Source: Escherichia phage BP32
Direction: 5' to 3' (one strand)
Length of the DNA: 64,000 nt
Sequence record: OR906198.1
The notes beneath the pieces are model-generated. The model had not been told where the DNA came from. It made no database searches and saw only the letters and a list, made by a program, of their open reading frames with translations. Each line of letters begins with the position of its first letter. Within the stretch, counting starts at the first letter, position 1. Below, one piece after another: positions 22,401 through 25,270 of this stretch. The position numbers were made by a program, and so were the translations under genes.

Positions 22401-23009
22401 ATGGATACTAAATTAGCTGAAATTTTTGAAGGAAAACATCCAAATTTTAGTACAGGAAAGCTGAAAGACAAAATAATAAAAGAAAATATTTTTCCATATG
22501 AGTGTGCAATTTGTAAAATTTCAAAATGGCAAAATAAGCATATTGTTCTGCAATTAGACCATATTGATGGAAATAACAAAAATCATCTTAAATCAAATTT
22601 AAGATTATTATGTCCAAATTGCCATTCGCAAACTGATACTTTTGCTGGTAAAAATATTAAAAATAATAAAAAGCGTTATAATGTTAGTGATGAAGAAATT
22701 TTAAACGCACTATTAAATTCGGCTACTATATCATCTGCAATTACTTCATTAGGTTTAAGTAAAGGCGGAAACTATAAAAGATTCATTAAAATTGCTAATG
22801 ATAATAAATTATATCATTTACTGGTAAATATTAATGAAAAGATTTTAACTGATGAAATTTACGAAGAATTAGTTAAAATCGATTATTCTAAATTTGGATG
22901 GGTTAGTAAAGCTGCTAAAATAATAGGTATAAGCCCACAAAAAGCTAGAAAATGGATAGAACGAAAGTGCCCAGAATTGATAGAACAATCTTTTTCACGT
23001 AATAAATAA
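22401..23009 (+). CDS. HNH homing endonuclease-like protein
   Basis: HNH motif LDHIDGNNKNHLKSNLRLLCPNCH; ORF track starts at TTG 22377, first ATG at 22401; ends 7 nt before tRNA-Leu. Confidence 0.75.
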   Translation: MDTKLAEIFEGKHPNFSTGKLKDKIIKENIFPYECAICKISKWQNKHIVLQLDHIDGNNKNHLKSNLRLLCPNCHSQTDTFAGKNIKNNKKRYNVSDEEILNALLNSATISSAITSLGLSKGGNYKRFIKIANDNKLYHLLVNINEKILTDEIYEELVKIDYSKFGWVSKAAKIIGISPQKARKWIERKCPELIEQSFSRNK

Positions 23010-23524: not shown

Positions 23525-23611
23525 GGGGAGTTATCCCGTAGAGGTAGCGGTGTGGACTGTAAATCCATTGTCATTGCGACTCGGGTGGTTCGACTCCACC
23601 ACTCCCCACCA
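23525..23611 (+). tRNA. tRNA-Tyr (anticodon GUA)
   Basis: acceptor GGGGAGT/ACTCCCC, anticodon loop ACTGTAAAT as in bacterial tRNA-Tyr, long variable arm, encoded CCA. Confidence 0.8.
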
Positions 23612-23657
23612 ATTTATGACTCGTCGTGAGACGCTCAGTTCTTTATTAGGGACTGAT

Positions 23658-24323
23658 ATGCATTTTTATCTTTATAAAATAACAAATAAAATTAATAATA
23701 AAATTTATATTGGTGTGCATTCTACCGAAAATTTAGATGATGGATATATGGGTTCTGGTAAATTATTAAAAAGAGCCCAAGATAAGTATGGTATAGAAAA
23801 TTTTTCTAAAGAAATATTAGAGTATTTTGATGATAAAGAATCTATGCTTGAAGCCGAGAAAAATATTGTCACAGAAGAGTTTTTAAATAGACCAGATGTG
23901 TATAATTTAAAACTTGGCGGTGAAGGTGGATGGGACCATATAAATATTCCTGGGATGCTAAACCAGAAGAAAGATGCTAGCTTAAAAGGAGCTAAATCGT
24001 TTAAATCACGTTTTGAAAATGATATTTTACTTCAAGAAAAATATCGTAAAATTGGTTCAAATGTATTTAAACGTTTGTGGTCAACTCCTGAATACAAGGA
24101 AAAATTTTTAAATAATAGCAGATTTTTAAATAAGCATCATACTCCTGAAACTATTAATAAAATGAAAGAAATTCACGCTAAAAATAATCATCAGAAAGGA
24201 GAAAAGAATTCCCAATTTGGTATGATGTGGATTCATTCATTAGATGAAAAAGTTTCTAAACGTATTAAGAAAACTGACCCAATTCCAGAAGGATGGTTTA
24301 AAGGTCGAAAAATGAAATTTTAA
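23658..24323 (+). CDS. segB: GIY-YIG homing endonuclease SegB
   Basis: 221 aa from ATG 23658 (ORF track start 23550 would overlap tRNA-Tyr); GIY-YIG motif YLYKITNKINNKIYIGVHS; embedded in tRNA cluster. Confidence 0.8.
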   Translation: MHFYLYKITNKINNKIYIGVHSTENLDDGYMGSGKLLKRAQDKYGIENFSKEILEYFDDKESMLEAEKNIVTEEFLNRPDVYNLKLGGEGGWDHINIPGMLNQKKDASLKGAKSFKSRFENDILLQEKYRKIGSNVFKRLWSTPEYKEKFLNNSRFLNKHHTPETINKMKEIHAKNNHQKGEKNSQFGMMWIHSLDEKVSKRIKKTDPIPEGWFKGRKMKF

Positions 24324-24326
24324 TTA

Positions 24327-24402
24327 CGGGGCATAGCTCAGAAGGAAGAGCAAGGACCTTCTAAGTCCTAGGTCGTAGGTTCGATCCCTACTGCCTCGAC
24401 CA
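24327..24402 (+). tRNA. tRNA-Arg (anticodon UCU)
   Basis: acceptor CGGGGCA/TGCCTCG, anticodon loop cuUCUaa, T-arm GTAGGTTCGATCCCTAC, encoded CCA. Confidence 0.85.
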
Positions 24403-24418: not shown

Positions 24419-24769
24419 ATGAAAGGTAATGTTTATTTAGTAGTTCATGATTTAACATTCTATTTTAATCACAATGATACTGTTATTTCTGAACGTGTAA
24501 TTAATTTACTTTATCAGCATGCAGATTATGTTTATGTCGAAAACGAATACGGTCATTGGCAATTTCTCAAAAATCGTTCATTTGGTTTAGATGGTTACGA
24601 ATATTTTGAACGTAAAGACCTTTTAGATAAAATTCCGTTATCTACACAATATCAAAATCATAAGTCTTTATATAAATGCCGTCCAATTCGAAATGCTGAA
24701 TCTGCGTATGAAGCAATTGATTTATGGCGTAAACGCCGTGAACAGATTGATGCATTAAAAGAATATTAA
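24419..24769 (+). CDS. hypothetical protein
   Basis: 116-aa ORF with GAGGAAAA RBS directly after tRNA-Arg. Confidence 0.6.
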   Translation: MKGNVYLVVHDLTFYFNHNDTVISERVINLLYQHADYVYVENEYGHWQFLKNRSFGLDGYEYFERKDLLDKIPLSTQYQNHKSLYKCRPIRNAESAYEAIDLWRKRREQIDALKEY

Positions 24770-25107
24770 GAAGCCGGGTCGCTACCGGTAAGTCGTCGGA
24801 CTGATGTTCCCTGGGTAAGGACTGGCATTAACAAATCTTTACGATCTGTTAATGTCCCCTTACATCACAGCAGAAACGGCGCACCGAATTATCGATTCGA
24901 GGAAATATCTTTGCCGTAAGCCGAGTAGCGTTTTTGACGGAACGTTCGGATATGGTCGAGATATGGCCTTTTAAAATATTGAGTAGCGTCAACTGCTTAA
25001 TAACCGGGTTCGAATCCCGGCGTTTCGTACAAACACTTGCCTTAGCAGGTGGAACCCCGACAAGGTTGCCGCAAGGCTTAGCCCCAGCCGAAAGGTTGGG
25101 GCTTTTT
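24770..25107 (+). ncRNA. structured non-coding region; candidate stable small RNA(s) (T4 rnaC/rnaD-like position)
   Basis: about 340 nt, GC-richer than surroundings, no credible ORF; tRNA-like T-arm CCGGGTTCGAATCCCGG at 25004-25020; ends in GNRA-loop terminator. Confidence 0.35.
25081..25107 (+). terminator. intrinsic terminator
   Basis: GCCCCAGCC-GAAA-GGTTGGGGC stem-loop followed by TTTTT. Confidence 0.6.
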
Positions 25108-25241
25108 GATATCTAGGCCTTTCTGGACCTCTCTAGGCATCATTTAGTTTATACCCTTTATAATATATTATCCTATCCTTTAATTGCCCATCCCTGCCCT
25201 AGAATTCCCTAAAACTTTTTAAAAATTTTTTCACAAAACTG

Positions 25242-25270
25242 TTTACACCCTTGTCATTCCATGGTACTAT
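25242..25270 (+). promoter_or_regulatory. T4-type early promoter
   Basis: -35 TTTACA, 17-bp spacer, -10 TACTAT; shares identical 21-nt GGTACTATACAACTATCAACT with promoters at 40499 and 41938. Confidence 0.65.

Follow-up and report, generated by a model that had tools for sequence, protein, structure and literature searches.

Homologues of the T4 stable RNAs rnaD and rnaC at the 3' end of the tRNA operon of Escherichia phage BP32, and a tRNA-like structural model for rnaC

A structured stretch of 338 nt in the genome of Escherichia phage BP32 very probably represents, in its architecture as well as its biogenesis, the homologues of the phage T4 RNAs rnaD and rnaC, followed by a structured trailer and a terminator at the 3' end of the tRNA operon. 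The stretch lies at positions 24770-25107 of the window, by which we mean the whole 64,000-nt piece of DNA that was analysed (sequence record OR906198.1), and the phage that it comes from is a Tequatrovirus (T4-like). Both RNAs have been known in T4 since the 1970s, when they were sequenced, and are present in the T4 reference genome annotation; the element itself is not new. What is added here is a structural model backed by covariation, a candidate kissing-loop contact within that model, and the correction of a recurrent mis-annotation of rnaC as a tRNA.

Identity and boundaries of the region

Over all of its 338 nt the stretch aligns with T4 (AF158101, 70830-71167), the two sequences being 92.9% identical, and under the aligned stretch the T4 record carries the features rnaC ("species 1 RNA") and rnaD ("species 2 RNA"). 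A sequence-only reading of the window had suggested that the region might be the counterpart of these two RNAs or else a different tRNA-like RNA. The alignment bears out the first suggestion, and the second is not needed, the tRNA-like T arm being part of rnaC itself. A megablast search with the stretch matched 761 phage records, 679 of which span at least 80% of the query, and rnaC and rnaD features are also annotated at the equivalent place in RB27 and GiZh. The T4 operon gives rise to a precursor of ~1.75 kb whose 3' end lies after the species I gene, and eight tRNAs together with the species I and II RNAs are its products (PMC2330249). RNAC and RNAD of T4 are late, stable RNAs, with the accumulation of RNAC validated by northern blot (PMC9697503), and rnaC and rnaD were described as being of unknown function both in 2010 (PMC3014915) and in 2022 (PMC9697503).

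The boundaries of the parts were set by transferring the T4 feature coordinates through the alignment. All of them, and all RNA elements within them, are on the + strand. The rnaD homologue (T4 "species 2 RNA", ~120 nt) occupies 24766-24885 and is separated from rnaC by an A/U-rich spacer of 6 nt, GAAUUA (24886-24891), which is conserved as (A/G)AAUUA. A tRNA-like RNA with four arms, the rnaC homologue (T4 "species 1 RNA"; 138 nt in this phage), follows at 24892-25029. It is succeeded by a conserved 3' trailer of 50 nt with three small hairpins (25030-25079) and by the intrinsic terminator of the tRNA operon (25080-25107). The latter had been described as a strong GNRA-loop terminator and is one, having a 10-bp stem with 7 GC pairs, a GAAA loop and a run of five U residues (TTTTT). 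Of the borders first proposed, 24770 and 25107, the 3' one stands, but the 5' one does not: the conserved RNA block begins ~3-4 nt before 24770, overlapping the TAA stop codon of ORF 24419-24769.

The region is also as GC-rich as had been noticed, with a GC content of 0.44-0.50 across 24700-25199 versus 0.25-0.38 in the flanks. The local helices seen earlier exceed chance, with folding z-scores of -3.0 (24766-24885), -3.9 (24892-25029) and -3.7 (25030-25107) on the + strand; for the - strand the rnaD stretch (24766-24885) gives -2.15 and the rnaC stretch (24892-25029) -0.57. Each of the two RNAs is a conserved, non-coding structure specific to the + strand. From the end of ORF 24419-24769 up to the promoter-like site at 25242-25270 no ORF is conserved, which agrees with the sequence-only reading, as does the status of the one candidate that it had dismissed, a 60-aa ORF at 24934-25116. 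Virtually no credence can be given to the idea that the region encodes a small protein from this ORF or from a 40-aa ORF at 24852-24974. Both frames exist mechanically, but the 60-aa frame begins with TTG, has no ribosome-binding site and is open only through a 1-nt deletion in an A-run in this phage, T4 breaking it by that 1-nt indel in a sequence that is otherwise 98% identical; substitutions are compensatory, the pattern of paired RNA, and not codon-like.

Identification came from the T4 alignment and not from the Rfam scan that had been proposed as a check. Rfam 15 has no family for either rnaC or rnaD, nothing in the region reaches a gathering threshold, and the best matches up to E = 10 are noise. 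RF00005 gave no match in 24766-25107, the best hit from its clan being tRNA-Sec at 16.4 bits versus the 47 needed. The Rfam tmRNA models gave no match in the region, nor did the families for YrlA and other tRNA-like modules at E values up to 10. A literature search on T4 species 1 RNA and on kissing or tRNA-like T4 RNAs yielded nothing about structure or processing.

Fold of rnaC

Homologues of rnaC were gathered by BLAST (loci L004-L008 and L159-L167) and by pattern scans of IMG/VR and metagenomes. They come from Tequatro-, Mosig-, Karam-, Winkler-, Kanagawa-, Moon-, Gelderland- and Marfavirus and from unclassified relatives. Two alignments were made, one with MAFFT (A3, 22 distinct sequences) and one with a covariance model (A4, 29 distinct sequences from about nine genera); A4 is biased to the model from which it derives, and the independent A3 shows the same picture. 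The covariation check across T4-like genomes that the sequence-only reading had called for thus gave good support for an rnaC fold in 29 distinct homologues. Over the 49 pairs of this fold, 91.9% are paired in A4, compared with 35-48% in slid controls, in which the 3' partners were shifted by 1-3 columns. Twenty-nine of the 49 pairs change on both sides, and the observed values were reached by 0 of 500 shuffles of A4, a control that overstates significance because the sequences are related to one another. The window sequence taken by itself has a minimum free energy (MFE) of -50.2 kcal/mol (z -3.85), and its MFE fold is the covariation fold. A covariance model of the RNA, R1, finds a single match in the window, rnaC, at 154 bits, and none in 871 kb of unrelated viral DNA. 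The pattern GGTTCGAGGA-N(22-50)-TTGACG proved too unspecific as a scan and yielded 120 chance loci, which were reused as a negative control and gave the covariance model 0 matches. Scanning GTDB genomes for rnaC produced five matches, all of them chance and none with a covariance-model score.

The fold starts with an acceptor-like terminal stem of 8 bp, supported by covariation, in which the RNA's own 5' end UCGAUUCG (24892-24899) pairs with its own 3' end CGUUUCGU (25021-25028). Pair 4 is AU in 11 sequences (the T4 type) and GC in the 18 others, and positions 5 and 6 are invariant tandem U.U mismatches. Only 5 of the 8 pairs of the stem are Watson-Crick, and the covariation seen in it comes down to one or two evolutionary events. 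Next comes a long composite arm, P2-P3-P4-HPa (24900-24969), at the position of the D arm of a tRNA. It too is supported by covariation, with compensatory changes in 17 of the 18 pairs of helices 3, 4 and 5 (A4), and three lineages have stems of unrelated sequence with the helices kept. The HPa stem alone occurs as CGUUU/GAACG, AGUAG/CUGCU, AGUGU/ACGCU, AGCAU/AUGCU and CACGU/ACGUG. An A/U-rich linker leads from this arm to hairpin HPb (24978-25001), which has a 9-bp stem with compensatory changes at all 9 pairs (A4) and a 6-nt loop, CGUCAA, at 24987-24992. The last element is the T arm (25004-25020), with stem CCGGG/CCCGG and loop UUCGAAU. The sequence-only reading had picked it out as a perfect T arm, and it is present there as CCGGGTTCGAATCCCGG. 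Covariation supports this arm as well, its middle stem pair being GC in 13 sequences, UA in 13, AU in 2 and UG in 1 (A4), and it adjoins the 3' strand of the terminal stem, 25004-25020 being followed directly by 25021-25028. In rnaC of Winkler- and Kanagawavirus (L005, L010, L021, L023, L163) the T loop is UGCAUUC or UGCAUGC instead of UUCGAAU and the T stem and remaining fold are kept, so the canonical T-loop motif is not required in those lineages.

Taken together, the comparison of homologues shows rnaC as an apparently tRNA-derived four-arm RNA that retains the acceptor/T-arm half, with the composite arm and the 9-bp hairpin standing where a tRNA has its D and anticodon arms.

A different fold is proposed by ARAGORN, which calls the 3' 94 nt of rnaC (24937-25030) a tRNA-Lys(ttt) with an 8-bp acceptor stem and the loop CUUUUAA. 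Read in this way, part of rnaC would be an odd tRNA-Lys(UUU) with a long variable arm, serving in decoding or as a PrrC-type decoy, and the weak tRNA-Sec-like match of 16.4 bits and the labels tRNA-Lys or tRNA-Met given to the homologous stretch in some GenBank records could be cited in its favor. We consider it very unlikely. The Rfam tRNA model stays under its threshold, and the D and anticodon stems of the ARAGORN call consist mostly of non-pairs. The internal acceptor stem (46-53 with 131-138) was rejected as well, since in 10 of 22 sequences its strand 46-53 brings about an A.C mismatch, three divergent lineages have lost that strand, and the nucleotides concerned instead form HPa, where all 5 pairs covary. 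The "anticodon" UUU falls in an unpaired, non-conserved linker that reads UUUG, UUAC, UUCAU or UCUU elsewhere, and the mature T4 RNA has 139 nt, not 94. A PrrC-type tRNA-Lys decoy was discarded too, its "anticodon loop" being neither paired as a stem-loop nor conserved. The tRNA-Lys reading is therefore largely refuted by covariation, and the earlier statement that no complete cloverleaf can be folded is upheld.

In public records the 3' 95 nt of rnaC are called "tRNA-Met" or "tRNA-Lys" (L006 1546-1640, Enterobacter phage id4496; H279, Escherichia phage G2133), labels that are explained by the same false ARAGORN cloverleaf. In most of the remaining records rnaC and rnaD either carry no annotation or lie under short "hypothetical protein" ORFs.

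Complementary hairpin loops in rnaC

The loop of HPa, UUGACG (24934-24939), is the exact complement of the HPb loop CGUCAA, its proposed partner; any two given 6-nt loops would match in this way with a probability of 1/4096. Both loops are unchanged in 27 of the 29 distinct homologues although the stems beneath them have been entirely rewritten. The exception is Marfavirus (Klebsiella phages PWKp18 and Marfa and IMG/VR relatives), recovered both with BLAST and with a pattern that left the two loops free, where the loops are UUGGCG and CGCCAA, i.e. an A-U pair has become G-C. The scan that left both loops free returned only these two complementary states and no sequence with one loop alone changed. 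All 6 pairs of the proposed helix are paired in every one of the 29 distinct sequences of A4. The energies computed for the loop duplexes are consistent with this: matched combinations give -5.5 and -7.6 kcal/mol, one mixed pair gives -0.4 kcal/mol and a G.U intermediate -4.9 kcal/mol.

Because both loops change together in Marfavirus, we propose a loop-loop kissing contact; most likely UUGACG and CGUCAA kiss within the molecule and would lock the rnaC fold. The covariation of the loops is one event in one lineage, and 5 of the 6 pairs never vary and so are uninformative either way. A contact between two molecules, giving a dimer, would fit the data equally well as an intramolecular one. A conserved purine-rich bulge of 3-4 nt beside HPa could supply the bend for the kissing contact.

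rnaD and the trailer

The rnaD homologue (24766-24885) is 87% identical to T4 rnaD, and 734 phage records match it. Its fold (MFE -39.7 kcal/mol, z -3.0) is paired to 90.6% in 18 distinct sequences, compared with 30-52% in slid controls. Near its 5' end is hairpin HP1 (24773-24789), with a 5-bp stem, (R)CCGG/CCGG(Y), and an invariant 7-nt loop, GUCGCUA; it is found in all single-sequence folds of rnaD, and its base pair covaries, being AU in 10, GC in 6 and GU in 2 of the 18 sequences. Directly after HP1, nt 27-33 pair with the 3'-terminal segment (GUCGUCG with CGGCGcAC) to form a long rod. A hypervariable central hairpin (24813-24863) of ~45-50 nt occurs in at least three unrelated versions (the window/T4 type, the L012 type and the L014/L155 type), all of them hairpins. 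Compensatory changes are present in helices 4-5. Support for the rnaD fold is weaker than for that of rnaC, because the conserved parts of rnaD hardly vary. In an evolution study from 2025, every line adapted to the semi-permissive host ECOR34 had fixed one SNP in the rnaD region (PMC12685909). Going by the coordinates given in that study, which are ambiguous, it would lie in or near the variable hairpin.

Two ways of joining rnaD to rnaC were considered. ARAGORN, run at -ps80, reports a "tmRNA" at 24775-25028 with the 5' tRNA domain in rnaD and the 3' domain in rnaC, which would make the two RNAs the pieces of one tmRNA-like molecule. The call appears only at this lowered threshold, its tag is "not identified", and the Rfam tmRNA models give nothing. 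The pairing that it needs clashes with rnaD HP1 and with the rnaC terminal stem, both of which covary, and rnaD and rnaC are found independently in different genera. The probability of a two-piece tmRNA is next to nil, and for practical purposes we regard it as refuted. Pairing of the rnaD loop GUCGCUA with two GUAGCG motifs of rnaC was rejected too: only 5-6 nt are complementary, and both motifs lie within rnaC helices and are kept in genera without rnaD.

The three hairpins of the trailer (25034-25051, 25053-25067 and 25068-25077) are predicted from folding energy alone. The trailer is conserved in Tequatrovirus, Mosigvirus and Dhakavirus with almost no informative variation, and the terminator at 25080-25107 is also annotated as such in GiZh.

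Distribution of the two RNAs

Identity of at least 95% is found in 680 of 743 phage records for rnaC and in only 73 of 734 for rnaD; by this measure rnaC is much the better conserved of the two. The phages in which rnaC stands within the tRNA array, with tRNA-like spacers, and rnaD is lacking are Karam-, Gelderland- and Winklervirus and Erwinia phage COW86c. Its place in these three genera, as in several unclassified relatives, is between tRNA genes with spacers of 5-10 nt, usually tRNA-Trp and tRNA-Gly; in Karam- and Gelderlandvirus it comes directly after tRNA-Trp and before tRNA-Gly. The reverse is seen in Dhakavirus ESCO10 (L158 ~700-900), where rnaD is joined straight to the trailer and terminator (junction ...GCGCCCCGAA|CACTTGCC...), rnaC is precisely absent and the covariance model finds no match. 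rnaC therefore behaves as a module that can be inserted or deleted, and rnaC and rnaD are modules independent of each other.

Whether the stretch could be a degenerate tRNA pseudogene or spacer, without function of its own and persisting as the 3' untranslated region and terminator of the operon, has to be weighed against the same data. The function of rnaC and rnaD has been unknown for 50 years (PMC3014915, PMC9697503), one Dhakavirus lacks rnaC, and Karamvirus and others lack rnaD. The viability of T4 deletions of the tRNA region, taken up below, could also be read in this sense. Yet rnaC is at least 95% identical in those 680 of 743 records, compensatory changes keep its helices across about nine genera in which stem sequences have been fully replaced, and the two 6-nt loops are either invariant or change together. 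This pattern of helix and loop conservation indicates purifying selection on RNA structure and not decay, and we judge a functionless relic to be improbable.

The upstream tRNA cluster

Upstream of the region, on the + strand, lie genes for tRNA-Leu, Gly, Pro, Ser, Thr, Met/Ile(CAU) and Tyr, a SegB-like GIY-YIG gene, and tRNA-Arg (24327-24402, + strand). With the Rfam tRNA model, whose threshold is 29 bits, tRNA-Tyr (23525-23611) reaches only 30.3 bits, far less than the 54-73 bits of the other tRNAs of the cluster. ORF 24419-24769 (116 aa, phrog_3355, no Pfam hit) sits between tRNA-Arg and rnaD, its TAA overlapping the conserved rnaD start, an arrangement shared with the Tequatrovirus phages IME537 and HY01 and with KMB38 (Mosigvirus). 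At the other end of the cluster, an HNH endonuclease ORF (22401-23009; phrog_14736, E 5e-124) ends 6 nt before tRNA-Leu. It occupies the place that tRNA-Gln has in T4, RB27 and GiZh, and no tRNA-Gln is detectable anywhere in the 64,000-nt window. The SegB-like homing endonuclease (23658-24323) is located between tRNA-Tyr and tRNA-Arg. tRNA-Asn, which in RB27 and GiZh lies between these same two tRNAs, is absent here; in phages without segB, tRNA-Asn carries the SegB cleavage site (PMC2330249). Just upstream of the start codon of the SegB-like ORF, beside its translation-initiation region, is a hairpin at 23635-23656. The translation-occluding hairpin of T4 segB spans the 5' end of the ORF, and the hairpin seen here lies near that place.

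Discussion

The arrangement suggests how the two RNAs could be made. rnaD and rnaC would be co-transcribed with the tRNAs, on a transcript that here presumably also carries ORF 24419-24769. Host tRNA-processing nucleases, RNase E or RNase P, would then excise both RNAs at the A/U-rich spacers, after which exonucleases would trim the 3' ends back to the paired terminal stems. Both RNAs would accumulate because their ends are base-paired, and trimming to paired ends would explain both their stability and the single unpaired 3' base. What is reportedly known of RNase E, RNase III and viable deletions in the T4 tRNA region goes back to the Abelson, McClain and Apirion laboratories (1970s-80s). Species 2 would be parted from species 1 by RNase E cleavage at the A/U-rich spacer, and RNase III presumably acts 3' of species 1. 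The spacer GAAUUA (24886-24891) is on this basis a probable endonucleolytic processing site. That the 5' end of rnaC coincides with the opening base of its terminal stem would be in keeping with RNase P as well.

On laboratory hosts T4 remains viable when its tRNA region is deleted, which implies that any function of rnaC or rnaD is conditional. That rnaC has no anticodon arm and encodes no CCA speaks against a role in decoding. Selection on structure opposes a pseudogene and the missing features oppose decoding, so we weakly favor, as a tentative reading, that rnaC is a non-decoding tRNA mimic that would occupy or divert a host tRNA-binding factor, with a benefit that is conditional and depends on the host. 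For rnaD, the host-specific variation of its central hairpin suggests, as a guess, a modulator of fitness on particular hosts. More speculative still, and rather doubtful, is the broader proposition in which rnaC would stand for an undescribed family of tRNA-derived, non-decoding RNAs residing in the tRNA arrays of at least nine T4-like genera. Its 6-bp loop-loop contact would replace the tRNA elbow, it would counter a host tRNA-directed factor or a defence system as a tRNA mimic or decoy, and the rnaD hairpin would be a second host-specific determinant.

What rnaC and rnaD do is among the oldest unanswered questions about T4, and annotation pipelines skip both RNAs or mislabel rnaC as tRNA-Lys or tRNA-Met. 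The discovery value of the present analysis is small. Its value as a resource lies in a model that yields concrete, testable mutations and deletions, the features open to such tests being the terminal stem formed by the true ends, the co-changing loops, rnaC as a mobile tRNA-like module without rnaD, and the hypervariable hairpin of rnaD.

Compared with its T4 orthologue (139 nt; AF158101 70908-71046), rnaC is identical at 136 of 139 positions and, as in T4, follows rnaD and closes the tRNA operon, on the same strand and with the same trailer and terminator. The differences are a linker A-run shorter by one base and two substitutions, one of which turns a U-A pair into U-G within HPb. T4 rnaD (119 nt; AF158101 71053-71171) is likewise orthologous to the rnaD described here and has the same fold, with the conserved 5' 45 nt and 3' 30 nt in common; identity is ~87% (positions 4-120), and the central hairpin differs in sequence. 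T4 rnaD begins 1 nt after tRNA-Arg, whereas here the 116-aa ORF 24419-24769 intervenes, so that rnaD does not directly follow the tRNA, a difference of context and not of the RNA. Since 351 nt of ORF separate rnaD from tRNA-Arg in this phage, its 5' end may differ from that in T4.

Outside T4, copies of the acceptor/T-arm half that do not decode and are handled by tRNA enzymes occur in YrlA (Y-RNA-like) RNAs, in the tRNA-like domain of tmRNA and in the tRNA-like structures of plant viruses. rnaC differs from these modules in that it has neither a Ro-binding helix nor a tag reading frame, and its acceptor is not pseudoknotted. With a canonical tRNA (RF00005) of the class II/tRNA-Sec-like kind, which has an 8-bp acceptor and a 5-bp T stem, rnaC shares the four-way junction, a terminal stem contiguous with a 5-bp T stem whose loop is UUCGAAU, and one unpaired base after the stem, and like a tRNA gene it lies in tRNA arrays with tRNA-like spacers. 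It departs from a tRNA in lacking a D arm, an anticodon arm and an encoded CCA (the stem is followed by A and then CAA) and in its three terminal-stem mismatches, and it would have a pairing between the loops of two arms in place of the D-loop/T-loop elbow.
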